Notes: generated from the letters alone by a model not told the origin. DNA of 64,000 nt from Lingula anatina (GCA_051362555.1 CM120640.1:67186788-67250787); one strand, 5' to 3'. Positions 1-49,000 are shown, counted from the stretch's first letter. Numbers and translations are program-made.

Positions 1-213
1 GATTGCCTTTGTCAACAGACTAATGACAATTGTGGCAATGGCGCTGATGAAGAACAACAGAATACCAAAGTGGAGATAATGGACCTTGGAAATGATGGGC
101 GGGATGGGGTTATCTGATGTTTCTCCACATGGGGGAGCAGGCCCATAGCTGTACTCCCAGATAAAGCGGGCAAGGCCAGTAACCAGTCCAATCATCAAAC
201 CCCAGAAAGCTCC
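1..213 (-). CDS. SLC5A exon 12, truncated by the window edge ([31 protein letters not shown]...[29 protein letters not shown])
   Basis: TAG acceptor at 214-216; GAFWGL and VHYLHF motifs; frame open to position 1. Confidence 0.93.
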
Positions 214-3200
214 CTATAGAAATCATGCATAAAGTAAAAAATATTAATGTACAGGGAGGGGAAATTCCGTGTCTACATATTGTGTAAGAATGTATAAACA
301 AAAATTTACTCCAATAAATAAAAAAACTAGACAAAAATCATATCTAAAATCAAACATTTTTCATAAATTAACAACAATTAAATATTTTTTATCTTTACTA
401 TATATATATCTAAAAGAGCCCTTTGGACTTAATTACCTGCTCATTGATTCTCTTCCATGCTACAGCCAGGACATACACAGCACAAATAGGTGGCGCCAGG
501 AAGCTGGTGACAGCCTGAATGTAGTGGAACAACTCAGAGACACTCTGCACAATGGGGATCCACACCACACTTATTACCACCAAAATCAGGACAAAAACTC
601 TGAAATACAATAGGAAAAATAAGCTCATACAAAATTTGATTTTGAACTTTATTTTAAACCCCAGGCCACCCTAATTAAAATATTTCATAAATCAGACAGA
701 TTTGACATGGTCCATTTAAGTATCAAAAAGCTTAATGTATCCTTTTAAGTTAATAGTGCTGAAGATCTTGTAACTTGCATAGATGAAAATTAGTCAGAGT
801 AGGTGTTCTTAAAGGGAGGAGTAGCAAATCACTCACATTCAATAACTTGCCAAATACTAAACAAAACTGGTGAATTCTATTTCCAAAACATTACATCAGT
901 AAAACTCCAAAATTATATTTTTTATAAGTTCTGGAAAGCAAGATTTGACAAGCATAAAATACTGGGGTAGTCAAATAAGCAAATAACTGGGTAATGCCCA
1001 TACCTGCCAACAATCATAAGCTCTATGTCACTGGCACGCTTACGGATTCTCCTCCATATGTCCATGGTGAAGATGGTACTGCCACTGTTAAAGATGGAAG
1101 TCAAGGAAGACATCAGAGCACTCATCATCACAGCCAACATCAAGCCACGTAGACCTGGAGGCAGCAGACGGATCACGAGCAAGGGGAACGCTATGTTGGT
1201 ACAACCATTGCGACTGCCACAAATGGAATAGCAGATATCTGGATCAGCACAGCCAACTTCGTCTGTAACAGAATACAATTTATGCAGAAACTTGAGGCTA
1301 AATGAAAGCAGTTATCCACTTGAAACATCCACAAAATAGTACTAATTAAGAAATCTATGTCTACTTTAACCATATATCTGAGAGTATGTCCGCTGAATAA
1401 TAAAAACACATTGCAACATTTAGCCCATTTTAAGAAGTTTTAGTTAACTAAGTTATGGGCGGAAACTTAGATAACTTAAATTATTCAACATTTTGATGTT
1501 TTTTAGGAGATATTTAAAATTCATTATATTTCATGAAATATCTTTTCCTATAAACAAATTATTTTAAAAAAATTATCTGATCTTAGAATACCTGAAATAG
1601 TTAACTACATAAAACTAAAGGTGTGAGTTATTATTATTATTATTGTTACCTGGAAACAGGATTCTTGCAATCATCCCAGGGTACACAATCAGCCACATAG
1701 GTAAGATCTTCAGGTATCCAGCCAGGACAGTGCCTCCCTTAGCATGAGACAAATCCTTGGAAGCTAGAGCTCTCTGCACTATAACCTAAATAAAAGAATA
1801 TATGGGTTGAATGGAAATGTCAAAATTTAGATATAATTTTTAATTATTCCTGAAGCAATTACTTTAAATCAAATTGGTAAAAATGAATTTCATTTTTTCT
1901 TAAATGGTCCACTATTATGCACACAGGGAGAGATGAAACACCATTTAAAACATTTCTATCCATGTTTTTAAATGTATATCCTCTGCACATATATCTATCA
2001 CCAAATGCACTATTCTGCAATAAAATGTAAACTTTTTCTTAATAAAAAAAAAAGTTATACAAAATGCCCATATCTATAAAAAGTATATCTGACTCTAACA
2101 AACATCAGTTCTTAAATATAACATCAAACTGTATCTTTTTTTTTTACAACCTTGATGGTTCTTGCTAAACAGCACTGAATTTCAGCATCATGCATTTAAT
2201 TGCACATTCTACATATCCTTAAAATGTATCATGAACTCCTCTCCATGATTACAAACTCTGTGCAGTTACTAATCTCAGCAGTGAAAATCAGCAGGAATTC
2301 TGTCCAACATTGACCTCATTGACTAATGTAACAGCAGTAAATTCTAATAAAATAATGAAATAATAAAACAACAACAGGTAACATTTAACACATGTATTTC
2401 TATTTGGGTCACCAAACTGGTTATCTGCATGTAAAATGACCCGCGATAATCAAAGCATGCCAAATGTATTGTGATCCATGCACGTGACATCTGTGAAATG
2501 TCATGCTTCCTTCATTTTTATTTGATAAAACAAAGCCATCAGGTGTGACAACAGTGACACTGACAATCAATATCGTCAAAAAAAGATGCAGTACGTAACG
2601 TGGCCAAGACAATATGACTATGTATAAAGTGCTTTCTGCCACTGGACACTGGCAGCTGATATGCAGTGGTGACACTACAGTGGATAGCAGAAAAACCTCT
2701 GAGGTGCAGCAAGTACGTAGTCATCAAACATGATTCTGTCATAAAACTGTCATCAAAATTTCACATAATTAACTTATGTCAAAACCTTCATGCAGTTTGC
2801 TAATTTCCATTCCATGCAAAAATAAAAAAATTCAAATCTTAAAGAATCTAACAAACATTAAGCTGAGAGCTCATGACAAATATTGCCCTCCATGAAGCAC
2901 ACATCTTGCCTGCACAAGCATGATCACCGTGACAACAGCCATGCTCTATACCTGATCAGAGCACCAATACCAAGTAGCAGAGATGGTCAGCCCAAAGAAA
3001 ACACCAGTCCATGGGAGATCTTTGGCATCTAAATCTCTGACAAGGTGAAAGGAGTCGTAGGGCGGGGGGCCACATGTTACGTTATGACCACCATTACGGT
3101 AAGATCTGGGTACGGCACTGAAAAACTGCTCAGAGATTTTCTCAAGGCCTCCTACTTCTACAAAACCTACAAGATATTATTCACATAATGTCAAACAGAT

Positions 3201-4654
3201 AAAAGTTTCTGTCTGATTAAATGCCAAGTCAGTTTAGCATTACATGCAGTTTCATTTTGTTAATTGATCTCTTAACATACTGCTTTAATTGATATCAACT
3301 TTTTTTCTAGAAAAAAAATCCTGCCGTGGTAGTCACTTTGCATCTCAGGAAGCCTTCTATTGTGAGAAGATTCAATAAGGTTAACATGCACGGTGAGAAC
3401 AGATATCACCCATGCTTTGCCTAAATGCTCAAAGAAATCATTATGATCAAGCCACCACTCGGACATCAATTTTGTGGCATCCAGGCATTCTAACATTGCC
3501 AGTTACCTGATCCGAGCAAAAGTACCAAACAGCAATGATGGTCAAACCAAAAACCATCCCTGTCCAGGGTAAGTTGTCATCTGTCACATCTCTGAACAGA
3601 TGCATTGAGTTGGAAGGCAAATAACCACAACTGGTGTTTGGAGAGCCCTCTCTGGTTGTGTTGGGGATGGCAGAGAAATACAGGCCCATCACATTTTCAT
3701 ACCCTCCCACTTCAACAAAGCCTGTAGAACAAAGGGTTTATATGGCAAATGGGCAGAAGTTGACAATTCCTGTTATCCAGAACTCTTATAATTCTTAACA
3801 GAAAAGAGTTTCTATACCCCCGGTATATCTGCAGGTTTGTGATCCAAGGGGGTACCATTCAAAGTTCCATCAGGATTCGTAGATAATTATTCAAATAAAA
3901 TACAGGTGTACCAAAAAAAAAAAAAAAGGAGGAATATAGACAACAGCACTTGTGAGGTGTTCTCATAGAACCATCGTCATTATGATTGCATGGATATCTT
4001 TACAACTGGTTTTGGATAAAAGAAAATATATAAAACTTAAGAATAATTCCTCATGAAGTTTTCATGGTACCAGTACCTTTTTCTTTCAAATGACCAAGTA
4101 CCATCTACATATACCATCTACTGTTGTAACTGGGGAATGTTTTATCACTTTTCAGCGATTGCTTCATGCACTTACCTTTATAAGACTTGGTAAAATACAG
4201 CAGCTGTGCAAATCATGGTTAACCACACAGAATCACATTTTCATTTTTGAATGGATGTGTACTAAAATGCACACATTTACAGAATTTTTTGAACAATTCA
4301 TAGCAATTATGTAAAAGCAGTTTGTTTTTTGTACTTTTGGTTTTCATGTTGGTCGAAATATAATACCAATCCCAACATGGTTTACAATGATTGCACATTA
4401 TGATCCAACATAAAACAAAGTTACACCACATTGCACACCACATGACATAAAACACCCATTCACATATCCTTTCTCAAGTACACTGAATGGCGCATGCTGG
4501 CACTTCAGAGAAACTGCCATTCATATCTGTTTTTAACCTTTTCCTTCTAAATTGTTCTTTTTAAATGCCAAGAACATATCTGCAGCAAAGAAGTCCAAAG
4601 CACTGCCAATTAAATTATATGTGTTTTTATCAGTCACCACAAATACAGTGATCA

Positions 4655-4706
<52 letters not shown>

Positions 4707-7700
4707 AGCACCCTCCTGACCTGATCTGAACACCAGTACCACACTGATGAGATGGTTAATCCCACCATCACTCCTAGCCATGGAAGAGAGTCATCATCAA
4801 TTGATCGAATCAAATTCATTGAGTTTGCTGGGGGAATGCCACACTTTGCATAAGTGTCATTTGGCGCAGCATCTCTTGTTGTATTGGGGACAGCAGCAAA
4901 AAACTTTTCAATCAAAGGGTTGTAGCCACCAACTTCAATAAAACCTATTTCAAGAAATTTAGAACTTAGTAATATTGTCAAAATTGTTCAAATAATGTGT
5001 TAATTTTTTGGGTGTCAAAGAAGGTTGGGTAAGTAAGGAAATGGTTAATTTGTTAAGGGAAAGGAACCCATCATAACAAGGGAAAATGTTATCTACTACC
5101 CAACATGGGGGAAAATTGGTTTTTTTTTAAATTATTTTGTCAAAATATGATAGATGGGGTAAATAATATTTCATCACACAAACCAAGCATGCACTCTCTT
5201 AGTGAAGCACGGCACAGCAACACATTCAGCACAATATATACTGACATCTAATAATAAAACAAAGACACTAAGAGACTAAGAAGTCTATACAGAAGCTACA
5301 TATATACTTACACTCAACATTTACTGGTAAAATCAATTTCAAAGTTTTACACTGGTAAAATGTTTCAAAATCAGGTCCAATATTCAAATGAAGAGAACTT
5401 GTTATGAAATTGAATTGCCTGAATGATTTTACCTGATCTGGTGATGTGTCCAGCACTACACTATTAATAATTTCAGACAAAAGACAAAAGAAAAGACTTG
5501 TAGTTTGTACAACCAACTTGGCACATCAACATTACCATATAAATTGATGTTTTCATTTTCATGTTCTTCAGCAACAAGCATTATGGTTTTACCTTCCAAA
5601 GGTTCCCAAAATGATTTCTACAGATGAAGTACATGTCACTTTGTCAACACTCAATCCTTGAGAATAATTCCAAGGTTGACCACCAAACAAACTTCCTCAG
5701 CAACTATGTACTTCACCTTGAAAAAAGTTTTGGGAAAAACCCCTGTACCTGATCCGAGCACCAGTACCACACAGAGTTAATAGTGAGCCCGATCATGACT
5801 CCAGTCCAGGGCAATTCAGGGTTGGATATATCCCGTATAAGATGCATGGAATCATGAGGGGGCATGCCACATGTAGTGTTAGAAACACGGGTAGTGTTAG
5901 GAACAGCAGAGAAGTACTTTTGTACAAGTGTCTCTAAGCCACCGATGTGCACAAAACCTATAAAATGACCATGCAAAGCATGTGAAAGCCTAGTGAAGAA
6001 AGAACATAGTTAAAGCATTTTGGAGGCAATGCAATATAACAGTCTTGGTATGATATACCTAAGTTCATGGTGTTATGTGACTTTGTATGTATTGTATGGC
6101 AACTTTTTTGTTAAAGGAAAGGGGTCAAAAATGTCTTTAAATTTTTTAGAAAATTACACTGACATATTCTGGACTAGAGCATATAGAGAAACCAGTAGTT
6201 TATACATATAAAATCTATCAAAATGCCAGCAGGTGGACAGTCTGTGTCCACATAATTTAGATGAATGCATTGCCTCCATGTGTTCAGTGCAGCCAAGTGC
6301 ATGCATGTGAAAGCAGGAACCAATTGTTCTACATCACACAGCACAGCTTCAGTGCACACAGCATACTTCAAAGGGTTGAAACAATGTTAAATTGTGCATG
6401 CCATAGAATGCTGGCAGCTCATTAAATAAACTTCACAATGAGTTCAATGAAACTAAGTCGGTTAATCTGTACATTTGTGGCAATGTATGTATAAATTCAG
6501 AACCTAAATTTTAGTTCGTAATGAAGCATTTACGGATAGCAGACAATTGAAACATGCTAAAGATATGATCAGTCAATTAAAAAGTGCAACAATTCATAAA
6601 AAATATCATTTAACAGGCATCCATAACAACTTTAATAAACAACTTAATATTTTGCTCAATGTGTCAGATTTTAACATTTTGAAATGAAAATAATTATAAT
6701 GGAGAATAGTTCTCAAATACAAAATAACACTACACATTAAATGAAATAAAAGAAATGAACATAATTTATAAAAAAATCTAAAAAGGAAAAAAAATCTGCA
6801 CAAGATAAAACTTTTACTCACTCATAACCATGAGGATAAAGGCACCAATAACCATGATGACAGTCTGAATAAAGTCTGTCCAGATCACAGCAGTTAGACC
6901 ACCTAAAAATTGACCAGAACATATGTCAAGATCTTTGTAAACAGGACAAAAAGGGGCTGGATTATCTAAATCAAGGGATTAGGGGAATTTTAAACCCACC
7001 TAGGCAAGACTGAAATTTCAATCTTGCCTAGGCGGATTTAAAATCCGTCTGGATTTCAAGTTTGCCTGTGGCTTACATATTGTTTAGCATGTCATATGTA
7101 AGTAGACTGATCATCCATGACAGCTCATAATCTCTTGACTTTGAGAAAAAAAAACAAGATTTTGAGCGATTTGGATGAATATGGGTCAGAAGTTACGACA
7201 GACTACCAAGATTCTTGGACATTTTCTACTCTTGTATGACATCATGCAAACAGCCTCATTTTCATCTCTTTTGGATGGTTTCTATTGGTTGTTATCTTAC
7301 CAGCAATGGTGAAGAGAGCAGCCAAGAGCAGGAGAGCAGTGATGGCAAGAGGTAAGTTCCAACCCATGGCCAGCTGAATGAACAGGGCTCCAGAATACAG
7401 ATCTGCCTGGAGAAAGGGATGGAATATTCAATACGATGTTTATGTCCATTTATCAGTGGTGACTGGTTTAAGTCTGGTACATTTCAGCAGACAATATGAA
7501 TAGTATTTCTTTTTAATTCACTGTTAGTTACTCTGTAATTTACTGGATTGAATATTACTTTTAAATCACTAAAATTACAGCATAGGTGTTTTAGTTTCAC
7601 CAAACATGTTCCCCCTATCTCCAACAGATTTTCTTTAAAAGAACCTGTCAATCACTTACTGAAATTTTGGTGAAGACATACAAAATCAAAGTCAAGACGG

Positions 7701-8417
7701 CCAGATAGATCCGTATGCGTTGACCACCAAACCGCTTTCTGAGGTACTCGGGCATGGTGTAGACCTGAAAAATCAGTTTGTGAGAAAACGTACAAAGGTG
7801 GACAAACATAATTCATTCATCTATTTTGTTTTATGTTTTTTTCTGTTATAATTTTCTTTGATTTATTTCATAATTTATTTATCCTTTTTGTGCAAGTTAT
7901 CTGCAAGATATCTCTAAAATTTTGTCAAGTGAAAACGTTTTTAATGCATTTTGATTTATTAAAAACATATAGACTTGAAAGGGACATAAATAAATGCTTA
8001 GTCACTACTTCAAATTCTTCAGTAACCAAAAACCAAGCTCTGTTTGTAAAGTATTAAGAGGTTAACAATAGATTCATACAAGCTGAACCAGAAGAAGAAA
8101 TAAAAAAAAAATATATCTGAAGATTTTAGGTTTTTTCTTTGATTCTTTTTTATCATACTTTGTTCGGAGGCATTTCCTTTTTAAAGTTAAAAGTTGGTTT
8201 ATTCAATACACCAGCATCTTCCTTGTAGGCCGTGTACTATGCATTACAACACACCTGGATTTTTATTTTTTTAAATTTTTGCTAGGTAAGTGATAATAAC
8301 TTCAAATTTGTAATAAGCCATATAGTATTGTACTCACCCCAGCAGCAATATATACAGGTACAAATATCCATCCTAGAATGAGCAGGATAAAAATGGCCTG
8401 AAAACAACAACAACAAC

Positions 8418-8462
<45 letters not shown>

Positions 8463-11400
8463 GTTTAGAATGGCTTTTGAAAGTCAATACAAACAATAAA
8501 TGAAGGATTTACTAAGATTTACTAAATACTGATTGATAAACTTCAGAGCTTCCGGATTTAGCATTTGTGCAAAGCATATGAGGCTTAAGTTCGAGTTACA
8601 GAACTATGCATGGGCCACAAGACTTATCTTGAGCTAAGACCAAAAACATACTGGATTTTGCACTTTCATAGCTGATTATATTAAAGGTACTCTCAATGGA
8701 ATCTAACCATCAAAATGAATTTTCCAAGAGAAAAGGGGGATTTTATCCTTTTCCTTATCATTTCTCAACCAGTCCTTGCACTTGGATTTGGTATCTAATT
8801 CCATTTTTAATTTAATAATTAATTTAAATCTAGATAACAGGCCAGTCATTTACAATGATCTTCATAGGCATGGCCTCATTTTCACACAAGAAAATACCCT
8901 GGTGTCTTGTGTCCCAGTAATATGCGGTGTATAATACAGACTTTGCAAGCTGTCATGGCTACCTGCGCAGACTCTGAAGATAATTACAACACTAGATACA
9001 CCTTATTCAGATACACTTTTACTTGAAGGGGTTTCATCGTTATAAGGTCTGCATTGGGAAATATAAGAAGCTTTACAGGATATACATATGACTATTGGGG
9101 GATTTTCAAATGCTTGAAATGTACTTTTAAGCTTAAACAGCCAGGTTACAGGGCATGCTAACATTTACTAGCATTGTGTTGGGCGTGGTTAATGTACTCT
9201 TGTGAGTAACATGAACTTTAAAAATTTTGCTATTTTACCCTTAAATCCTTACACAGAAGTGTTCAATGCACCAGATTTAAAATGTTATGTCTCACTCTGG
9301 TTGCTCATCGCATCCAAACAATATCAATTCATCAGAATTGTAATTCTGTTGTCCTAGTAACTGTTCTACTTGTTCTACTGTCTAAATCACACAGAAATGC
9401 CCAGGTATGTGATGAAAAGTTCAAGGTACAATGTTCTGCCAAGTTATTTCTGGAATAATATTGGACATAATGGAAACCGTCACTGTCAACTACTAACAAA
9501 AGAAAGGATGGATATAGTATACTTTAAAACTATGTGGGGTAACAAATGGAAATTATCTCCATAAGAACCTTAGTCTTGGTAGCCTTTGACAGTAAAATGT
9601 ACCTTGGTTCTGTAGATATTAGGAAAGGGTACCACCTGGCCATTGATCATCTCATAAATGTTAAAAAATATTGCTTAATTTACTAATATGAAAGCAAATT
9701 TCGAGAGGAAGACTTCTCTTGTAAATGAAAATTTAAAAAAATGTGTAAAAAGTGTGCAAATATGTAGAATTTTGAATTTGAAAGACAAAATTCTGCACCT
9801 AAATCAAATTCCCCAAACAAGTAATTTTTAGCATAAATTGGTCATTTCAAATTTTAAGAAGTTTTCTATAAAATAAATTAAGGTACATGCATTGTGAGAT
9901 TAAATTTAAAACTAATCTTTTCTTTTAAATCACAAGACAAAGTTCTTCAGCACCACAGCCATCTGCTTTGTAATAATAAAAAAGGTACACATTATTACAG
10001 TACTCACACTGTTTTAGAACAAGGCACAAAGTGAATATAGTAGCCACAGTAGCTTGTACTGGCCAGACACTTAGTACTTGAGGCATATCATTTGTTAAAC
10101 GTAGACCTCTTGTCTTGTTGACAATTCTGCATACATCTAGGCTTAGGTATGCACAAGAGACCATGCAGGTATCACATGTTTGAAATATGTCAAATGTATT
10201 GTTGGGTAACAATTCTAACATGATCATCCATCTAAATGTGATTCTAATTATACCCCTGGTATGCAAGACAGTTTCTTTGACCAATACATTACACAACCCT
10301 ACAATAAGTAAAGTGAAACATATTTTAAATAAACTGGACAACAATGATTTTTTAAAAAGTGAATGTTCATGTTTTCTGGCAGTTTTCAAATGTCTATTTA
10401 TGGGATTTATCTACAGCAGCTTTCTCACAGCTGGTTTGAGACTCTAGCACCCATCAAACTACCAGCTAGGATAAGCATCCCATTAAAACTTCAAAGGGTA
10501 AATTGATAGATGGTGGAAACATGGGTACTTATTTGAAATTGCTCTAATTTTCAGTGGAAACTATCAGTAAATTTGGCTACAAACCCAAATAGCAGTACAA
10601 ATCATTATCAGTGGGCTTTTTATGCAGAAGGTCACATAAAAATGAAACTTATTTTTGTATGTGTTCACACTCACTGCAAAATGTCTGGCTTCATAACCTG
10701 CTGTTTTCAATTTCAGGGAATTTCATTTCAACGCACCTTTTCTATGAAAATTCTATACCTTAATGAAACAAGAAGACATGTATAGAAAAATATTTTCAAC
10801 ATGACAGCAAAGGTTCAAAACACAACTACACATAGGAAACTGCCCATGCAAAGGCACTTAAACGTGAAGTCACACATCAGATTGTGTTAAACTTGACATT
10901 CCATAGTTTATAATATGTATGTAAAATCTGGACAAGGACTGAAACAAACCAAGTTCTTCAATTTCAACTTTTCCAAACATGTCCCTTGTAGTATGTGTCT
11001 GAACTTCAGGAGTATTATCACAAAAGTTTGTCTTGTAACCATTCTTATAGGTCTCATGAAAGAAATGAAGTTTACAAATCCATGTATAGTTTACCTTTAA
11101 ATGGTGATTTAGATAATAATTTAATAGATTTAAAAGATATCTTTAGAAACCAAAGTTCAACTGATTACAAAGAATTCAGTGGCCGTGAATCAAGTTCACC
11201 AGATACATCAAGTATATATGCCCTGCCAATACTAACAAAATCATCTTCTGAGTCAACATGCCGCCCTCTGATAAGGGAGGACTGAGACAGTGATTCTAAA
11301 AACACACCCATCAGTTGCTATAACAAGATAGTCATCCTACATTAAACTTGAAGACAATATTTATCCATTAAGGCCACAGACTTATCCAAGAGGTTGCAAA

Positions 11401-14400
11401 TTCATCACGCTATATCTACAGGCATGTCACTTTTGCATTATAGAATTTTTGAAATATTTCTCTTCATAAAACTTTTCAAAATCGAAAAATGAGTCTAGGA
11501 CAGGAGAGATGCTAATTTTTCTAAAACCTCTCTTCGATTTATTCTCCATTCTCCATTCAAAAATAAAAAAATCACCCTTTTTAAAATCTACATGTACCCG
11601 CAAGACAATCTGACCTCTATTATCAGTGTTGAAAAAGTTGACAAAGAAAAAACATGCAACGTCAATAGAAGCAAAGAATTGGCATCTCATTTATCAGTCC
11701 CCACAGGGAGGTGTGGTGTCAAGGTCACTGGTATCATGCAGTGAACAGGTGAGACTGGGCAAGTCACACCCAAAAAAATTCTACTGTAAAGTTCCATCTG
11801 ATTCGACTTATTCTTAGGAGCCTGACTCTTTTCCTTGTACATATTTCTACTATTGCTCAGAAATTAAATAAATTTTGGAGTCCAGACACTTTATCAGGGA
11901 AAAAATAGCATTGAACAGTATTTTTTTTCTGAACAAATTGGTTCTAATCTGAATCTTAAAATAAGATTTCATAACTTTTCACTGTAAAGCAGATTCAGCC
12001 AAATGTGGCCAAAAATGCATTAGAAAACACCCATAGAAAACACTATAGATATCAAGAATAAAAAAGAGAGACACCAATTCCACGTGTAGGGAAATTTCAA
12101 ATTTCGAAAAAAAAATTTTTTTAATCAAGCAAGGGCAAAAGCAGGTGATGTTCGTGTTGCAAATTCCTCTGTCCTGTTTTCTAGACCACTGGCTGATAAA
12201 GGTAAAGACAATGTGACAAGTAACTGTTTACTTGAACTGGTACCACCATAACTGCAAACTTCGATAAAACTGATCTGAGTAAAATCAGTCAAGTGCCAAA
12301 AGAAGACCTTCCTGGTGTAAAATAAAATATAATATAATTGTTTACTTCTCCCCACTTCTAATCTATGAAATATGTTCTCTGGTTATATGGATCTGAAAAG
12401 TTTTAAATAATTTTCACAGTGCCTTTGTTTTATTTTTCGGAATCTTGACTCTTCAAAGGCACTGAACAAAGAACATCTGCCATAACTTTCACATAAAAAT
12501 GCCTTTTTTAAATCTTGCTTGTGAAGATATTGATAAATATTCAAGATAATTAAACTAACTTTTCTCCATTTTTTTAGTCCAAAAACATGTTGCAGGTATA
12601 ATACCAGACACTGTAAAAACAAAATGTACCACTAATATCAGATAGACACATTTTAAAAAGAAGAGCATGAAACCTGTCTTGCCTTTGTAGTACAAGAATG
12701 ATAAATAAACCTGCCACAAATTTTAGACTGAATGACAAATGTGAAAGCATGCAAACCAATTGCACAGACTGAAGGCAGGTATTGTCAGCAGTGGTGTGTT
12801 GGTGTGTTTTTACATACTTTAAAAAAAAGCCTTTTTTCACGAAGGACTGTCCTGGACAAAGAGTGTGTGGTACACATGGCCATTAAATGTATGAAATAAA
12901 GGCAATTCAACTTGTCTTACCATGTACAATTGTAATCTGGGGAAATTCTACTACTTTTCAAACAATTGTCCTTGGACTAATAAAGTGCCACACCCATGGC
13001 ACAAAACAAACTAAGTGATCATAATAAATATATACAAACATATACAGTATGTGTGTGTGTGGGGGGGGGGGGCAGGTTTGTGTAAAACCATGCAGGGAAA
13101 ATTTACGATATTTTTAAATAATAGTTACCTGACTAAATCCACTGCATACCCATGGCACCATGTGAGAATAGTAGTGTGCATCTGCATAGTTTAGTTTTAC
13201 ACCAAAACTGGTGTTTTTACATTTCAATATTGAAACAAAAATACATCTGGGTTAATGCCAGACATGTGCACTGACCTGGGATTTGGGGGGGGGGGGGGGG
13301 GGGGGGGGGGTACAGATCAAGCCCCAATAAAAATTTAATTCCTTGGATAATTTCTTGGAAATGGTGGATTTCTTAGAACTTGACATTTAATGTTGGGCCT
13401 TCAATCAAACTACTGGACTGTCCCATGTAACCCAGGTCAATGAGCACTCTATGCTACTTACGTTGAGTTCAAACACTGCAATCCCAATGCCACTGGATGC
13501 ACCAGACCCTGCTAAGCCAATAAAATGACCACTGCCAATATTACTGGCAAACAACGAAGCTCCAACCTGGAAATAAATTAATTTTATTATTCTTACAATC
13601 AATTTAAAAACAGACCGACATAAAATATAAATATTAAATATTTGGAATATATTTGACATTAAACAGATCAGATGCACATCTTCAAGAACAGTCAGTTTAA
13701 CCTGTAAACATGTTCTGCCATTATATAGTGCCATACTTATAGATTTTATGTCCTTTTGGTGTGCACCACAACATTTGTTTCTTATTGCATTTCCCTCTTT
13801 ACAAAAAATATATCATATGAGCCACAAACGTGGAAGAGACCCAAATCGTGGATGGAAAGGATGGAAGTTTGCATTATTTATAATGACCCCCCTGCTACTG
13901 TCAAGAAATAACCAAGAGCAGTCAATAAAGCAGTTCAGCATGTTTATTCACACAACCCACTATCCTTTATATTGAAAATCTATTCTCATGTTTGCACTAG
14001 AAACCATCTTTTACGTGTTTATTTTTACATGCTTTTTTTCTTAAGGATGTGCACTCGACCTTCCCAAGACTGGTACAGAATATAATAGTATATCTTTCTG
14101 ACATTGGATAAACAAGACTCATACCTCCCACTTACACATTTGGAGAAAAAAAACAAAAAGGATGTCCCCATTTCATTAGAAAAAAGTGGTATAAGTGACT
14201 AATAAATATCTTTAGTTTTCCTGTCATTTTGATGATTCAACATGAAACTGCAGACACCCAACTGGGATCTTCCTTCAGATTTTGAAAGTAAAGTGGTTTC
14301 TGGGGATTGGCATTACTCATATATCTACAAAATATGCATCTTAAATGCTTATGTAGTTCTGACTTAGTATAACTAAATTTCAAGTTAAATGAGCAACAAC

Positions 14401-17400
14401 AAACAGGTATAGTGTTATGTAAAGGAAGCCCAAATATTTTCTTTGGCTATACATGGTTATATTCTGCATACATAAAGTTGTTGTTTTGGTCAAACTCTAG
14501 TACTTTAAGACCACCATTATGTCAGGTCCAGCCAAAGTTAAATGTGACCTAGACCCACCACAAGTTATAAAACCTTCATCCTAGGACCCTCAAAAGAGTA
14601 AATTATACAAATTCATCACTGCTAAAGAACATCAGCAAATGTTGACACAGCAAACACTGCCACTGCCTTGGTGGTATTATTAGGATAACTCACCACAGAT
14701 ATGGTGACATTTCCCCTGCATTTTATATCGTATCTATTGAAACCTATGTTATAGTTAAAGATAAGCCTGATTTTTTGTATGCCTTGTATCTTTTAAGAAC
14801 CTTTGTTAACAAATTTTGATAAATGGTGCAGGGCTGTGTCAGCCTATTCAAGCACTAAATTCCTCAACTATGATCTCATTTAAGTTAAATACAAATTATA
14901 CAAGGTACTGTTAGAAGAGAAAACCACTGCTTTAATTCAAGTGCTGAACAACCACAATGACATAATATTCACATATATTACGATTTTTTAAAAGGTTGTC
15001 CTGTATGAACTGTATTTGGGGAGGTTCATTTTGATCTCCCTTTATTGCCTTAATATCAATCTATTAAAATAATGTATTCCTTTCAAGGCAAGTTTAAATA
15101 TAATGAAGGTTTGTAATTTAGACAGCATGGGTAACAGGTGCTACTGTACTAGGTTTAGGAGAAACCAACAACAAGTTACAACAGCCAGGATATTATATTC
15201 CACAATTGTGACAATTAAAAGAATAGAATAGAATGGATGAGTATCAGAACTTACAGGAATCCAATGCATGCTTCTTCCTGCCAAGAAGTAACCTCCAACA
15301 CTGCCTCGATTTCTGCATGATGACTGAAAATTTTAAAAATAAATATAATGTTACAGAAATACATTTCAAAAAATGCAAACAAAAACATTCAATTTAATAA
15401 CATCAGCACTGTTGAAATGACATTTTCTACTCTCTATTGCTGTTTGATACTGAAAATTGTTCAGGCAAACTGACACTGTAGGTCAGTTCCCAACAGCCTC
15501 TAAATCTCTGGGTGTGACCACTTTGAACATCTCATAAAACTTTTTATTTACAAAATGAAATATTCACTTAATTTGTGTTTTGTAAATTGAAATATGCAGC
15601 TTTTGATTTTCAAACCTCAAAATTAAAACCAAACTTTAATTAAAAACAAGTCAGCAAAGCTGTCAAATGTACAGACAAAAAAACAGGCAATAACTATGCA
15701 GAAAATAGGCTACTGTCAATTCTGATGCAAAAGTAAATTATGTTAAACTGCAAATTCAACATCAAATTTAAATTATGCTCAACAGGTAATACCAATGTAA
15801 GTAAAATGTGTAACAAGTTAACACTTTGAAAATGTTTAACCTCCAGAAAAAGAAGCCAATTAGACTGCTTTTCAAACTCAGGCTGCATTTTAGTCCTGTA
15901 TTTCTTTTTAGAAAGTTAGGCAATCATAAGTAACATGGTTTTCCCATAATGGTCCTCATGGCAGCAGCACGTTTTTTTCAAATTTTGATGCAATATTACA
16001 TAATGTTTAACAGCATAATGACCATCAATTTTAATAATAAAATATTAGTATTATGGATATTCAGAAAATGTGACTAGCAAAGGTCTTCAGGCCCATGGAA
16101 CTTCAAAGTCACAACAACAAAAAAAGCATAACTACTACAATAGTTGCCCCGATCATGCTGATTTTCGAACATGACCTGCGTTTTATGAATATTCATCAGC
16201 TTTGTAAATATATAGCCAAAAAGTAAAACTGCCTTCCACTTATCGTGTTTACAATGAAAGTGCATGGCGTCGGCGACAGAGACAGTGACGGCGACGACAG
16301 ACGCAGGTGATGGCAATATGTACAGACACATCTGTGCATATTTACTGTATTGTTTGAGACCAGTAAGTGACATGGTTTTTCTTAAATGGTCATTATGGGA
16401 GCAGTGCCCAAAATAGATTTTTTTCAAATTTTGATGCAATATTACATAATGTTTAACAGCATAATGACCATCAATTTTTAATAATAAAATATTAGTATCA
16501 TGGATATTCAGAAAATGTGACTAGCAAAGGTCTTCAGGCCCATGGAACTTCAAAGTCACAACTTGAAAATGCCAAAATGTAAACAAGACAGCACTGTTCT
16601 GAAATGGGTTTTTTTTTTATTTTTAACAATTTTTTTAACATAAAACAAAATTAACAGGTTACTGCCATTTTTATACGATCAACTAAGAAAATTGATGACA
16701 TGGGAAAAATATCAATACAACAGTGCTGAATGTCCAATTTCCTCCATTCTGAGATTCTGAACATAGTGAATGATTGAATCTGACAAACTGCAATGATATG
16801 AGTTTATTTCCATTTTTGAAACTTTATTACACAATACACGATAACAAGCTTACCATCATTTTTACAAAATCAACTAATAATGTTGTAAAGACTCAACCTG
16901 TGTTTTAGTAAGATTGCCCACTCCTGTGAGTTTAATGACAATTGGCCTATCTGTTTTTCTTATATTGTGTTTACAGTGTTGCATATATGCTGAAAAAAGA
17001 AAAAACAGCATAACTTCTACAATAATGGCCCGATCATGCTGATTTTGGAACTTGACCTGCGTTTTATGAATATTCATCAGCTCTGTAAATATAAAGCCAA
17101 AAAGTAAAACTGTCCTCCACTTATCGTGTTTACAAGGAAAGTGCACGGCATCGGCGACGGCATCGGCGACGACAGACGCAGGTGATGGCAATATGTACAG
17201 ACACATCTGTGTCTGTACATAAAAAGTGAAAAATAGAAATACAACAGACCCTAGTATTTTAAATAAATATATACCACTCCTTTAGCCTATTTATAAGAAA
17301 GTTTGCCTAAAAACTGTGTAGAGATTACACCCCATACAAACTGCTGTTTACACAAGACATACTGTCCTGATTTATCAGGGCACACCTGTCATTTTTTCAA

Positions 17401-18296
17401 AAATTCACAACAATTCCATTTTCAATGCGCCCACAAGTCCTGAGGTGTTATTTGATGAGGCATCCACTGTTCCACATTTCTGGGTCAACAGGTTGAGCAG
17501 TAACACTGCACAATAAGCTTCTCCTGAATCATAATGCAAACCGATCTCTGCCTCTGTACATAGTGCTATTAATAATTTTACCTTATACAGCTGCTTTTAA
17601 GACACCTTGGCAAAGCAGATACACAGCATTAGCATTATTTTTATTTTTGTATTAGTATTGTGCCTCAGGAATGTGCCCTTTTTGACATCAAAACTAATTG
17701 CTGTGCCAGTTACCTGTTTACTAAGTGCTGTCAAAGGACTGGTGACAATTCTGGCTGTTAATTTCTCATTATAACTGATAATCATATTAAGGGATTAATT
17801 TAATATGGATAAGAGAAGCATAATGATTTTTAAAAGATTTAAAAACACCTTCAGTTTAAACAGAAATATACTGATTGATTCTGCAAAATCGCTAAAAGAA
17901 AAACAGTGATATGGCCTGGCACATATAGAGTGAAAAGCTCGCTGTAAAAAAGTAAATTCACGCCAAATAGACTGATCCCGAGTTAATAACTACCCAAATA
18001 GGGCGTGACAGTGCGCTGATTCAGTACAAGCATTCTAGACTTGTTCTATGTAAATATAAATTACTATATGCTTTTCGTGATAAGAGTCCACAATGTTGGT
18101 TTACTGCTGAGGTGACACCATTCCTGTGCGCCTTTAAAATCAACAGGTGCCTAACTAGCGTCGTCCTGATATCTACAACACCTGAAGTGAAACGGCTTAC
18201 CCAAATTCCGACGGCCATCACAGCAGCAAGATATCCCAATATCACGAGGATATCTCCCCAGTGGAGAGCTGTTTCCCCTAACGAATATTCAACCAT
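1..18296 (-). CDS. SLC5A (SGLT-type) sodium/monosaccharide cotransporter gene span; at least 12 exon positions, exon 8 in 4 alternative copies; 3' end beyond window start
   Basis: Spliced translation gives SSS/SGLT motifs: [79 protein letters not shown]. All introns are GT-AG with matching phases. Orthology within SLC5A1/2/4/9/10/11 cannot be resolved by eye. Confidence 0.96.
437..599 (-). CDS. SLC5A exon 11 ([54 protein letters not shown])
   Basis: 163 nt, CAG/GTAATT, phase 2/0. Confidence 0.94.
1004..1262 (-). CDS. SLC5A exon 10 ([21 protein letters not shown]...[34 protein letters not shown]...ELMIVGR)
   Basis: 259 nt, CAG/GTATGG, phase 1/2; TM8 Na2-site serines. Confidence 0.95.
1650..1785 (-). 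CDS. SLC5A exon 9 ([45 protein letters not shown])
   Basis: 136 nt, TAG/GTAACA, phase 0/1; continues WCSDQ into VIVQR. Confidence 0.95.
2952..3166 (-). CDS. SLC5A alternative exon 8d ([71 protein letters not shown])
   Basis: 215 nt (3n+2), TAG acceptor, GTATAG donor, open frame, phase 1/0. Not in the ORF track; translated by hand. Confidence 0.92.
3507..3721 (-). CDS. SLC5A alternative exon 8c ([71 protein letters not shown])
   Basis: 215 nt (3n+2), CAG acceptor, GTAACT donor, open frame, phase 1/0. Confidence 0.92.
4656..4703. repeat. 48-nt poly(A) run (poly-U in the SLC5A pre-mRNA) just downstream of exon 8b
   Basis: Direct reading. Confidence 0.9.
4721..4944 (-). CDS. SLC5A alternative exon 8b ([74 protein letters not shown])
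   Basis: 224 nt (3n+2), TAG acceptor, GTCAGG donor, open frame, phase 1/0. Confidence 0.92.
5749..5957 (-). CDS. SLC5A alternative exon 8a ([69 protein letters not shown])
   Basis: 209 nt (3n+2), TAG acceptor, GTACAG donor, open frame, phase 1/0. Confidence 0.92.
6822..6902 (-). CDS. SLC5A exon 7 ([27 protein letters not shown])
   Basis: 81 nt, TAG/GTGAGT, phase 1/1; SSS family signature region. Confidence 0.94.
6987..7044. repeat. 58-bp near-perfect palindrome (29-bp arms, 3 mismatches) in SLC5A intron 6
   Basis: ATTTTAAACCCACCTAGGCAAGACTGAAA|TTTCAATCTTGCCTAGGCGGATTTAAAAT. Confidence 0.85.
7301..7406 (-). CDS. SLC5A exon 6 ([36 protein letters not shown])
   Basis: 106 nt, CAG/GTAAGA, ends in phase 1. 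Confidence 0.94.
7660..7764 (-). CDS. SLC5A exon 5 ([35 protein letters not shown])
   Basis: 105 nt, CAG/GTAAGT; conserved TMPEYL.KRFGG motif. Confidence 0.95.
8338..8397 (-). CDS. SLC5A exon 4 ([20 protein letters not shown])
   Basis: 60 nt, CAG/GTGAGT, phase 0/0. Confidence 0.93.
8403..8460. repeat. Compound (AAC)n(AAT)n microsatellite abutting the SLC5A exon 4 acceptor
   Basis: Direct reading. Confidence 0.9.
13462..13566 (-). CDS. SLC5A exon 3 ([35 protein letters not shown])
   Basis: 105 nt, CAG/GTAAGT; TM1 Na+/sugar-binding motif. Confidence 0.95.
15255..15323 (-). CDS. SLC5A exon 2 ([23 protein letters not shown])
   Basis: 69 nt, TTTTCAG acceptor and GTAAGT donor, phase 0/0. Confidence 0.93.
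15642..17225 (-). mobile_element. Non-autonomous Helentron-type element (HINE/DINE-1-like), copy 1, in SLC5A intron 1
   Basis: Minus-strand layout: T-run terminus, 14-bp stem-loop TATGTACAGACACA/TGTGTCTGTACATA (about 17192-17221), GC-rich (GCCGAT/GTC) microsatellite, internal tandem subunits, subterminal inverted copy of ATGTACAGAC (about 15667), short CAGC-TTT-GCTG hairpin and TTGTTTTT end. Strongly similar to 40391-43780. Contains an extra partial terminus at about 16120-16337. Confidence 0.75.
18201..18296 (-). CDS. SLC5A exon 1 ([32 protein letters not shown])
   Basis: 96 nt from ATG to a GTAAGC donor; resembles the N-terminal helix of SGLTs (DI.V...Y......VG.W). Confidence 0.88.
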
Positions 18297-43000: not shown

Positions 43001-46000
43001 TTTTTAATAATAAAATATTAGTATCATGGATATTCAGAAAATGTGACTAGCAAAGGTCTTCAGGCCCATGGAACTTCAAAGTCACAACTTGAAAATGCCA
43101 AAATGTAAATAAGACAGCACTGTTCTGAAATGTTTTTTTCCCATTTTTAACAATTTTTAACATAAAACAAAATTAACAGTTTACTGCCATTTTTATATGA
43201 TCAACTTAGAAAATTGATGAGATGGGAAAAATATCAATAAAGCAGTGTTAAATGTCCAATTTCTTCCATTCTGAGATTCTGAACATAGTGAATGATTGAA
43301 TCTGACAAACTGCAATGATATGAGTTTATTTCCATTTTTGAAACTTTATTACACAATACACGATAACAAGTTTGCCATCATTTTTACAAAATCAACTAAC
43401 AATGTTGTAAAGATGCAGGAAATGTCAAACAAAAACTTTTACGTATCTTATTAGTTTAATAATGAGACTGTTAACATGCCTAAGAATTGAATCTGAGGAA
43501 ATGTGAAAAATATGCTGAAAAGTGAAAAAACAGCATAACTTCTACAATAATGGCCCGATCATGCTGATTTTCGAACTTGACCTGCGTTTTATGAATATTT
43601 ACCAGCTCTGTAAATATAAAGCCAAAAAGTAAAACTGCCCTCCACTTATCGTGTTTACAAGGAAAGTGCACGGCGACGGCATCGGCATCGGCATCGGCAT
43701 CGCCATCGGCATCGGCATCGGCGACGACAGACGCAGGTGATGGCAATATGTACAGACACATCTGTGTCTGTACATAAAAAGTCTGTTAACAATGGTAATT
43801 AAGAAAGAACCCAGAGTAAAAGGTGGTGTGTGCAAAATGATTCTCCAATTAGGCACATGATCAGTTATGTAATCATGCTATTGACAGAAAGAAAAAAAAG
43901 TCACCAGGAGCATAGTTGCATATATATCCACAGCTGCAGATTTAATGAGGTCACAGTGTCCCAACGTGAAAAATTAATTACATCCAAAGACAGAAGTGAG
44001 ACGTAATATTTTATGTTGAATAAAAAACCCATATAATGTTATATTGAACTTTTGTCTAAGAAGTTTAATCAACATATAGTGCCATATGATGGTAGCTATA
44101 TCAGTTTTCACCTGGTTTTGAGTTTTAAGACAAAAAAAATTAATCAAATAAAAAAGATATGTTAAGTAACTTACCTTTCTAAAAAATTTTGAAATATATG
44201 TCCTCTTAAGGAATTGCAAATTTCTTCAATATATGGCTAAAATAAAAATATAAGATATAATAAAAATAAGATATCAAATATCAGTGAAAACCATGAAAAG
44301 ACATGTATATTATAAAAGATATGCTTTTTCTTTTCCCACAAATGTAGACGCCTCTAGAATACCCCATTTATTCTTACTTTGGATTTTTTTCTTTCTTCAT
44401 ACCACTAAATAAATCATACAACTCCCAGGACATTCAATTCACTCAGCCAGGACTTTATCACTGATAACAGAAGCAGTAGATAATGAACCCTGCATTTATC
44501 CAAGAAACAGAAAAAGACATTATCAAAGCAAGATCAGAAAGATATTAGTCTGCTAAGATAACGATGCCCCAATATGCCAATTGCATTTTCCCAGAATCAA
44601 ATCTATATATTAAAAGTGCTTTTGCTAAATTTTGTTTCTTCATTATGTCACATCAGTGGTGTTAGAAAGAAGCCCAAGACCTCAGCTGAGTGAAATTGGA
44701 GGTGAAAAATACAAAATCAGACTTCTCAATTATGAAGGGTAAATTTGGCTAGGGAATTTTAGGCAGGTTATGAAATCTCAAAATATAAATTCTGCACTAA
44801 ATTCACCTACGACTAACCTGCATTCACTAAAAATCAAATAACCATATCTCACTTTGATGAATTACACTATGGGCTAAGGGTTTTATGTTCAGTCTTGTGG
44901 TGTGTTAAAAGACTGGTGGCCTAAAGGGGTAATATGTTTACATGGCACAGACTGGCCTCATGATTCAAAACATCAATCAGACACGTGCATGTGAAAGTAT
45001 ATGTCATACACGTTCAATGCTGAGTGCATGCATAAGCAACCGCAACTGCACCATAGAGTTGTGTCTACAGAAAGGTAGTCATGGATTCCAACCACTTCTC
45101 TGAAGTCTCTCACCTCAAATACATTGGCTGGTAGCTGTCTTGACTTCTGTGCTTGTGTGAGCATATCTTGCACGTGGTCTACAGCTTCTTTGGAGTATGT
45201 CTGGAAAGTGAAAAATTACAGCATTTGTTTACATTTCAGTGGGAGATTGGTAAAACGCAATATACATACTACCACGGCTGCAGTTCTTGTTAAAATTTTT
45301 TTCGCTCATACAAATGTATACAAAAGTAGCATATGGGCTAGGTGAAAAAATTGGAGATCTTTTTTGGTGTTATGCCAATACTAAATAAGGTCATCATTAT
45401 TTTGTTGTTGTTGTTCATGAAACAAAAAAAAATCTATCTATCTATCTATCTATCTATCTATAGTATTATTGTTCTGTTAGTGAAACAATACTGAATCCTT
45501 AGTTTAATGTTCTGAAATGATCTTAGCAGAAATCATATGCTGCAGTGGTTGGAATATTTCACAATTTATGTTAATGCCAATTAAATCTTGTCCAGGTAAC
45601 CCTTCAATCTACAGGCTAAACACGACTCTTAAATTGCCCAAGAACATGCTTCTTTCACTTTCCCAAAAACAAATCAATCCTGACTGAATCTAAAGGTGTG
45701 AACAGAGAGGATAACTTCAGGCCAAAAATCAGTTTATCTTGTACAATCTGATGGCAAGTTTACAGAGAGGCCCTATTACAACTCTCACCTGGGTGTCTAA
45801 TGACACCAGTTTTACCAACTTGGGGTATAAAAATAGGTCTAGTCTGTACAAGTCTAATCTATCATCCCATTCTAACAGACCTGGAACTGGACCTAGACTT
45901 TTATCCCACTGAATAATGGATTTGGTTGCAATTATTGGTTGTTTTGGACACAAAATGGGTTTTAATCCTTAAAATTGATGGTGTATGGTTGGCACAGAGC

Positions 46001-49000
46001 TGGGAATGGAATGCCCATGTAAGAGAGCACTCCCTGAACATAGTCCTATGCCAAGGCAAAAATGTTTAAAATAATAAATAACAAAAAAAAATCTTTAAAC
46101 AAACTAGGAGGCTAGCATTCAGTTATAATAGCAACTGCTATCTTCCTCAATAACTGTCTATCCCGGAAATTTCACCAAATTTTGTGAAGAGCTTTTTGAG
46201 ACATCTTGTCCATATATAAACCAGCGCAGATGAAAACATTACCGCCTTCATTTGTAGAGACAGAAATTACTGCATCAATAATGCAATATGCAATAATCTA
46301 GCATCATTCATCTCTTATGACAACCATTTGCCAACACATCCCCTATAAACAGAGTTTTTACAGGGCTATAATATCCATCTTTTTTTTTTCTTTTTGTGGT
46401 AAAGAATTTTTTCCAAAGTACATTTGTCCCATGTGACCACTGGTCTCCTGATACATGCCTAATACTATATGACCTAGTTATCACTTGTAATTATCATCAT
46501 TAGGACAACACAGAAAACCTATAGTTTGTCTGGCTTCTCTGCTGACTTTGTGTTCTAACAGTCTGAGATATATCCAGGCCATGGGAATGAATTCCATGAA
46601 GTACACTTTCACTAACAGGTACGCACTGAATGATAGGGCCAACAGGTACAGCCCTGCTCACTGGAATCTTCTCTCACCTACCGTACACCTTGCAACGTTT
46701 ACTTGAAATAAAATATTAAGCTTGACATGATTTTGCTGATAATTTCTAGATAAGCCATAGCCTATTAACTTCAAGTACAACAAATTTCAAATTCTACTAC
46801 TCCGAGAAATATGGTATGCAAAACCATTTTAACAGGCACGTGCCAGACTTAGTTTACAGAGTTGCAGAGCTTTGCTAAGGTGCTCCCACAAAAAGCATAC
46901 ATTTTGATAAATGTTAGAAAAGGGTTTAATTTCTTTTCATCATTGATCCATTTCCTCACAGGAATATCATGCTTTGTCTTGAGAAAAAAAAGCATGCAAC
47001 ATCTAAGAAGTCAATCATAAACCTTCACAACCAGGGACTGCTCATTCTTCTGCTATTGTGGATTTGCCTTCTACAGTTTGCTTAAAATGGTGATAATGAA
47101 GAAATAGAAACTTCCACCTCCCTAATCACATACCAGCAAAGGCTGGGGAATTCCTTGAAATATTAATGAAAGGGCAAAAATTATATCTGGTCTACTTAGC
47201 ATTAAAGGCATTCCCAGACATTGTGCAGTAGGGTAGAAGTGAAAAAAATACTGGGAAGAGAAGAGGTCTGGAGTATTATGGTTCCAGGAAAATAACATTC
47301 AACTGTAATCCAGTAATGTATGAATCAGTATATTTTCCACTAATTTATCTCGTCACAGAAACTGCAGATGTTATCATTTTACTGATGCTTTAATGAAACA
47401 GGATTGCAGATTGAATATATGCATTAGAATATACCAATATGATTCCCTCACATATATTTTCCATCAATAATTATGGTAATGACTTGTACTTTTCAAAGGG
47501 GATATTGTGAATTTTACAGTTATTGCATTTTTTTATTTAATAAATTCTTTAAATTTCAACATTCCTACTGAGTGGTAGCAACAAAATTGAAAAGCAAGCT
47601 ACCCTGTTATTTTACTTTATACAGTAAAAGCACCCCAAATGCCATATAGATACATGATTTTTCATGATTCCAAAATTATGTACCAGTATCTAAAAGACTG
47701 ATAATTTTTCTCATTGAAAAAATCAAGTCATTACCATACTTCAGCTAATTGAGTGTCTAATTTCTAACACGCTTGTTAACTAGACAGCCAGGCTGCTATA
47801 TCTACTGACAGTTACACACATACACATGCACACACACACACACACACACACACTTCTGCTAATGGCAACGACAGATGCAGCTATTGCTTTATGTCTAGAC
47901 ATAATCCATAAAAACAAAATACACTTTCAATGTGTGATAAGTCACTAAGATGCATTCAGCACTGTTTAATAAAGATTTGTAAAGACCGTAAAGATTGCAA
48001 AATTCTACATTAAGAAATATATCTGTGCTTAGACAAAAACAGGATTAAAATACAATTTTGAAGTGGAAAAAAAATGTAGACCTGCTGCATCTAGTATAGT
48101 GGTATATACTTACATGGCTCTGTGATAACAATTCTTTCATGATGTAATTGTCGTAAACATGTTTTCCTAATTCTATTCGTTCTTCATCTGTTTCTAATTT
48201 TTCAAATTTCCTTATCTGCAAAGAAAACAAAAACACAATCAAACAATTGAATGCATCAGGCAAAAAAAATTGCTTGACTTCAAGAGTACACAATTTGCTT
48301 CCAGCTGCAAAGCAAAACGAAATGTTTTGAAATTAGACTCCAACACAAAATAAGATAACTCTTATTTGTTTTAAACATCTGCAAGAAAAAATGGCCACAT
48401 CAGAGATATAGAGAAGACATAAGGGTCGGCCAAAGACCAGTGGGCTATTTAGAGTCTCCCAACATCCACTTTCTCTTTCTCTCTCTCTCTACTTACACAG
48501 CTGGTGAGCTTGGTCAGTCTGGTGATATAAAGATATGAATTTAATCAACATTTTCAAAAGTGAATGCAGTCCAATATTACTGCATAAGGTCAAACATACT
48601 TTAGTTTTAACTCTCTTTCTTTCTTTCAAACTTCAAGAAGTGCCAATCTGGTGAGTATCCTGTGAAATATTCTAACAAACAACCATATTTTAATATTTTT
48701 CCAGAAACTAATTTTCCTAGAACTAAGAAAAGAAAGAAAAAAATAACAGCACAATTTTTTTGCTTTGTTACTGTACTTCATACCTTTTTTGCAGCAGACC
48801 CATATTAATATATATATTATGCATAATGACATGGAATCGCTGTGTGGAGGTGGATTACACAAGTGAGGTTAAAAGATAAAAGCATTTGCTGTGTTTTATT
48901 ATGTATTCTTAATGGAAATCAGTTCACTGTATCTTCTTTTTTTCAGTGCAGCCCATTCCTAACACATCAATAGCCTGGGTCTGTGAGGCAGTGGAATACC

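Follow-up and report, generated by a model that had tools for sequence, protein, structure and literature searches.

In the 64,000-nucleotide stretch of the Lingula anatina genome analysed here (GCA_051362555.1 CM120640.1:67186788-67250787; hereafter the window, with positions counted from its first letter), a gene of the SLC5A family, of the SGLT type, carries on the minus strand four homologous copies of one exon (8a, 8b, 8c and 8d) in tandem between exons 7 and 9. This selected exon array is real, and by its make-up it belongs with the tandem-duplicated, mutually exclusive exon clusters, a kind already known from NKCC2, coq-2 and Dscam. The interpretation that we hold to be probable on the whole is that the four copies are maintained by selection, that 8b is the copy used in the samples at hand, that the minor copies 8a, 8c and 8d are used elsewhere, and that the change of copy likely alters sugar affinity or preference.

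Structure of the exon array

The array and its flanks comprise the constitutive exon 7 (6822..6902, 81 nt, established from the sequence and from RNA joints on both sides), the alternative exons 8a (5749..5957, 209 nt), 8b (4721..4944, 224 nt), 8c (3507..3721, 215 nt) and 8d (2952..3166, 215 nt), and the constitutive exon 9 (1650..1785, 136 nt, established from the sequence and from a joint 1262-1650 found in 4/4 RNA runs), all on the minus strand. Each copy is bounded by AG and GT, has a length of 3n+2, and is open in the frame carried over from exon 7; the coordinates proposed in an earlier reading of the sequence alone (hereafter the sequence-only reading) were recovered for all six exons, and its splice sites, open frames and shared phase for the four copies. 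Pairwise amino-acid identity between copies is 55-64%, with 41 of 69 residues identical between 8a and 8d, for which about 58% had been estimated, and 28 of the 74 alignment columns are invariant across 8a-8d. The motif that had been read as common to the copies has a spacing of 6 residues in all four at the place where it had been written 'R.....LPW'.

The cassette exon aligns end to end with residues 223-295 of human SGLT1, which correspond to an outer loop and to transmembrane helix 6 (TM6). Comparison of positions 1601-7000 with themselves (blastn) showed that the exons resemble each other and that intron matches are A/T-rich only, in line with the earlier claim of dissimilar introns. The introns between copies measure 804, 999 and 340 nt, with AG-free zones of 18-46 nt, and the splice sites of 8a, 8c and 8d fit the consensus as well as those of 8b and of the constitutive exons, the donor of 8c being the best (8/9). 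A fifth copy was not found in the window (tblastn; next match at E 0.35), nor was a second copy of any other exon, including 7 or 9, mapped there.

Coding constraint on the copies

For the 6 pairs of copies, the proportion of synonymous differences (pS) was 0.62-0.85, corresponding to a synonymous divergence (dS) that is saturated or 1.3-1.9, versus a nonsynonymous divergence (dN) of 0.34-0.44; the purifying selection that had been proposed is therefore borne out in 6/6 pairs. Identity by codon position was 72-84% at position 2 and 30-48% at position 3, and fourfold sites were identical in 5-8 of 17-21 for pairs of copies. These measures are pairwise, cover the whole history of the copies and were obtained without congener sequence, such that a very recent loss is compatible with them. 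In simulations, a neutral copy was still intact (AG, GT, frame, no stop) in at most 1.2% of 5000 cases at 0.5 substitutions/site, and in 5-25% at 0.1. On a profile made without the four copies, these were placed at the 30th-67th percentile of 251 homologues, which had themselves been found using 8a-8d, a procedure that favours the scores of the copies. For 8b, 7 differences are listed in the reads, of which 4 are silent, the rest altering loop codons 33 and 51. Judged from these comparisons, each copy is under coding constraint.

Splicing of the array

RNA evidence was taken from 4 of 9 listed runs (6, 6, 25 and 30% of each being read), which derive from other individuals with the tissue unlabelled, and junctions were listed from a threshold of 3 reads. 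The joint between exon 7 and 8b, which skips 8a, occurs in 4/4 runs (6, 2, 35 and 31 reads; 74 in total). At the other end of 8b, 9 reads in X7 pass from exon 9 into the end of 8b as a loose end, skipping 8c and 8d; the row of the 8b-exon 9 joint itself is absent, rows having been dropped at the poly-T run 4647-4712. No copy-to-copy joint is listed in the 4 runs at this threshold. The use of one copy per mRNA holds for 8b transcripts, as seen with short reads in which the two joins do not lie on one molecule.

Of the 16 possible inclusion patterns of the array, only the four single-copy ones keep the frame open; in each of the remaining 12, a stop falls within the second copy or within exon 9. 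Inclusion of zero copies, or of at least two, leads in the sequence to a premature stop, which would expose the transcript to nonsense-mediated decay; since all zero- and multi-copy patterns break the frame, exclusivity is likely enforced at least partly by the frame. Steric hindrance, in which the branch point lies too near the donor upstream of it, was ruled out, as the introns (804, 999 and 340 nt) are too long. Pairing between docking and selector elements, searched with 8 shuffles on each side and coarse 24-nt windows in one species, was not clearly above shuffles, with a best upstream value of -18.5 kcal/mol (shuffles -16.6 to -19.6) and a best downstream value of -20.4 kcal/mol (shuffles -17.4 to -20.0). 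Inverted repeats number 268, and the 25 longest among them are of small size and for the most part A/T-rich. Because neither short introns nor clear docking/selector pairing was found, the copy would likely be chosen by regulated splice-site selection through protein factors.

The encoded transporter and its sugar pocket

The gene occupies positions 1..18295 of the minus strand, with exons 1-12 within the window and a 3' end that extends past position 1, as mapped by tblastn of the database protein P0001. This protein and P0002 are the database proteins of the gene, and both contain a near-identical 8b (72/74 residues). P0001 is homologous to human SGLT1 over its full length (E 5e-221, span 13-671) and contains the SSF domain (PF00474), and the 8b form keeps, in the alignment to human SGLT1, the sugar-site residues N78, H83, E102, Y290, W291, K321 and Q457. 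Among named proteins, SGLT4-like proteins of molluscs come nearest, at about 66-71%, and the Lineus protein reaches 66%. A quick tree built on the constant parts, with 62 rows, places the gene as the sister of 15 proteins from molluscs, with a value of 90 in the SH-like approximate likelihood-ratio test (SH-aLRT), unstarred. The animal would therefore probably be a lophotrochozoan that lies outside the mollusc groups sampled. By homology the gene is placed among the SLC5A SGLT-type cotransporters, and sodium-coupled sugar transport is the predicted function of its product.

The cassette swaps the outer loop together with the helix bearing residues 283-291. Residues 286-288 and 291, numbered by counting from the closing DQ, are NSV and W in 8a, SSV and W in 8b, IAV and F in 8c, and SAT and W in 8d; pocket residue 287 is thus S, S, A and A, respectively, and the replacement of W291 by F in 8c is shared by only 3 of 252 homologues. 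According to the available portions of the articles cited here, M283 helps the closure of the outer gate in SGLT1, and Y290/W291 the inner layer (PMC10203128); in SGLT2, S287 and W291 form hydrogen bonds with the C4/C3 positions of the sugar, which A287 cannot do, and proteins in which human SGLT1 and SGLT2 had traded their residue 287 did not work (PMC12322204). In the same sources, T287N cut glucose transport and kept galactose transport (PMC11061222), T287A is one of three changes linked to mannose/fructose uptake by SGLT4 (review PMC12605011), and W291C reduced glucose and sodium affinity (PMC5699082).

Since the copies differ at pocket residues 287 and 291, exon choice likely tunes sugar binding, and would do so in affinity or preference, most strongly for 8c. 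The use of copies 8a, 8c and 8d is probable elsewhere, in different tissues, stages or conditions, and would there exchange the loop and the pocket face of TM6. That at least one minor copy is in use appears highly probable to us; given such use, a difference in sugar binding between the isoforms is predicted as likely.

The same exon in other animals

Thirty protein clusters were opened, and 244 full-length proteins, in 329 pairs, were screened for pairs that are alike downstream and unlike in the cassette exon. Sixteen pairs were flagged; 12 of them, which differed between species or over several exons (exon 77-84% identical), were set aside. In the nemertean Tubulanus polymorphus, isoforms X1 and X2 (XP_074640671.1/XP_074640673.1) have their first 211 and last 401 residues in common and differ in this exon alone, which is 54% identical. 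In the shrimp Penaeus chinensis, isoforms X3 and X4 (XP_047494953.1/XP_047494961.1) display a clean swap, with flanks 100% identical and an exon 59% identical, and isoforms X1 and X4 likewise (exon 59%). Two Owenia proteins (CAH1801178.1/CAH1801179.1) share their last 382 residues, preceded by different copies of the exon (64%), one of the two being without the protein front, and a model of the snow crab Chionoecetes has two cassette copies in a row. The exon-switch interpretation of the sequence-only reading gains support from the swap of this same exon in the Tubulanus and Penaeus database models.

An exon-only swap was not found in any mollusc cluster examined. The isoforms X2/X3 of Haliotis rufescens were not counted, as their difference spans several exons; P0352, the top match, in two stretches, has an identical repeat and was taken as an artefact, and P0215 and P0259 were considered as fused tandem genes. 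The second copies of decapods (P0260, P0157 and P0321) have in common a Cys-Pro insertion, with G-S near 287 (Q-A-S in P0157), and decapods may hold more than two cassette copies. SGLT-like models of Daphnia magna, D. pulicaria and D. pulex (P0053/P0054, P0262/P0344 and P0343/P0345) swap a different homologous exon, located around Q457, which is the other sugar-pocket helix.

In a tree of the exon (48 rows, 72 columns), 8b falls together with the exon of Tubulanus X1 and with those of molluscs, bryozoans and flatworms (93/88), in a starred group that leaves out 8a, 8c, 8d and Tubulanus X2, and 8a pairs with 8d (95/85). On the same 72 columns, a single clade for the Tubulanus pair was rejected by the approximately unbiased (AU) test (p 0.010); a clade of the four copies of the window (p 0.108), one of the Penaeus pair (0.119) and one of 8a+8c+8d (0.32) were not rejected. 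An origin of the array before the split of the lophotrochozoan phyla is suggested by these exon phylogenies, and faster change in the minor copies could yield the same picture. The more general scenario, in which a switch of the pocket exon predates the lophotrochozoan split, re-arose or persisted in decapods and shrank to a single copy in the majority of molluscs, with one gene choosing among sugars, is put forward tentatively and we consider it rather doubtful. If it is true, the isoforms would be natural chimeras with which the part of TM6 and of the outer loop in SGLT selectivity can be probed.

Alternative interpretations

Several observations weigh against the use of all four copies as sugar-tuning isoforms. 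Of the four isoforms that had been claimed for this gene, only the one with 8b was found spliced in; the junction count that had been suggested as a check gave the joins of 8b with exons 7 and 9, and for 8a, 8c and 8d the 4 runs (of 9, at 6-30% of each, threshold 3 reads) list no junction, such that one copy per mRNA is supported for 8b and the isoforms with the other three copies are candidates. Read depth on 8a, 8c and 8d is zero or at intronic background (not above it for 8d), except in X4, where 8c has about 2 reads and the bins next to it are empty. Both annotated proteins carry 8b, and among the 470 fetched proteins none is more than 60% identical to 8a, 8c or 8d. At the pocket, 65 of 252 homologues have A at 287, H83 and Y290 are the same in all forms, and T287C was without effect on kinetics in the portion of PMC5699082 available. 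The isoforms of the other animals are evidence at the level of gene models, in which neither DNA nor supporting reads can be seen, those of Tubulanus and Penaeus being automatic annotation.

The pocket observations also bear on an unlikely, though not negligible, alternative, namely a functional cassette by which trafficking, glycosylation, stability, partner binding or salt sensitivity, instead of sugar preference, would vary among the isoforms. It is raised because most differences sit in the outer loop, where most of the variable columns of 8a-8d fall; N-glycosylation sequons number one in 8d and two in each other copy, and many homologues with a single copy likewise have S or A at 287, which, with the unchanged kinetics of T287C, speaks in its favour. 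It accounts poorly, however, for the rare 291F of 8c, at a position whose residue forms bonds with the sugar and stacks on it, and for the lowered affinities of W291C. Alternatively, 8b alone would be used now and 8a, 8c and 8d would be once-functional recent relics that have not decayed. The exclusive splicing of 8b in 4/4 runs and in the annotated proteins agrees with this, and the lack of an exon-only swap in the mollusc clusters examined makes a loss of extra copies plausible; but all three copies must then have lost selection very recently, given that even one neutral copy stays intact in 5-25% of simulations at 0.1 substitutions/site, while their splice sites are intact and 8c has its few reads in X4, so that we regard relics as improbable.

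That the minor copies act mainly as poison exons, whose co-inclusion with 8b triggers decay and tunes the transcript level, is very improbable: every multi-copy pattern does have an early stop, but both the amino-acid constraint (dN far below dS, 28/74 columns invariant) and the single-copy swaps of the Tubulanus and Penaeus models would be left unexplained. An assembly artefact, or the remains of tandem whole-gene duplicates, was refuted and keeps virtually no probability. Tandem SGLT paralogues are known in molluscs and bryozoans, but the copies are here 55-64% identical with saturated third positions, exons 7 and 9 are single in the window, and in the RNA exon 7 is connected to 8b with 8a skipped, and 8b to exon 9 with 8c/8d skipped; the sequence-only reading had already judged an artefact unlikely.

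Further features of the gene and the window

P0001 and P0002 have residues 1-544 in common, followed by two different but homologous last segments, which likely represent a second duplicated, alternative last exon beyond position 1 of the window; together with the four-copy cassette, it would permit 8 forms. In intron 6, a 40-nt piece (7209-7249) is matched by reads from other transcripts in X1 and X4 of the RNA data, and is likely a small repeat. Intron 1 contains two occurrences of a repeated element, a few hundred bases in length (about 16000-16350 and 17000-17220), with a similar reading at about 43480-43880, and is likely a non-autonomous mobile element. Upstream of the transporter, an exon resembling GRK2/beta-adrenergic-receptor kinase was detected on the minus strand at about 48110-48220 (E 1.4e-7).

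Novelty and significance

In the open-access literature, at the level of titles and abstract beginnings, mutually exclusive exons were not found described for SLC5, and no paper was found there on the SGLT exon swaps of Tubulanus or Penaeus. The term 'SLC5' is absent from the main texts of PMC8373072 and PMC9741552; supplements of other genome-wide exon surveys lie outside this search and could list such a case. The novelty that had been suggested holds for SLC5 within this search, but exon switches of transporters are known (SLC12A1), and two-way versions of the present one are already in annotations. With its four copies, compared with a maximum of three for human homologous clusters (PMC8373072), a sugar transporter joins the membrane proteins with recurrent tandem exon duplication. 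Gene counts alone underestimate the diversity of invertebrate SLC5, the annotation of this gene having retained only 8b. How SGLTs discriminate sugars is so far only partly explained, and four natural versions of a pocket helix in an otherwise identical protein would constitute a clean test of SGLT sugar selectivity.

Relation to known exon clusters

The Dscam1 and myosin heavy chain arrays of arthropods consist of at least three homologous tandem exons, of which one is used per mRNA. The 'Dscam/myosin-like' exon choice that had been proposed is correct for the architecture, but the SGLT array is far smaller, and docking/selector pairing was not clearly above shuffles in it. Human SGLT1 and SGLT2 and the mollusc SGLT4-like genes are alike in full-length homology and in N78, H83, E102, K321 and Q457. 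The segment is a single exon in vertebrate SGLT genes. In vertebrates, unlike here, it varies from one paralogous gene to another. The PMC8373072 supplement of human tandem-exon substitutions contains 'SLC5A' 0 times. The isoforms of Tubulanus (X1/X2) and Penaeus (X3/X4) are alike in design, the same exon being swapped between identical flanks, with two versions seen in each instead of four.

Tandem exon duplication is described as recurrent in membrane transport proteins in the part of PMC9741552 available, and the cases that come closest are two further systems, as far as the available portions of their sources go. The exons 6a/6e of coq-2 in helminths, molluscs and annelids are likewise mutually exclusive homologous exons present in several invertebrate phyla, and their swap alters two active-site residues and switches the substrate (PMC7434440); coq-2 differs in being an enzyme with two copies, genetically tested, whereas the SGLT copies are without a fixed residue pair that separates them across species. 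The exons 4a/b/c of SLC12A1/NKCC2 belong to another family, with another substrate, three copies and a vertebrate host, and the use of their isoforms is shown by cDNA, whereas only 8b is seen here. They are nevertheless tandem-duplicated, mutually exclusive exons of an SLC gene that encode a substrate-contacting helix and whose joint inclusion shifts the frame (PMC8373072), and the NKCC2 isoforms that they specify differ in ion affinity (PMC6873903, citing a review).

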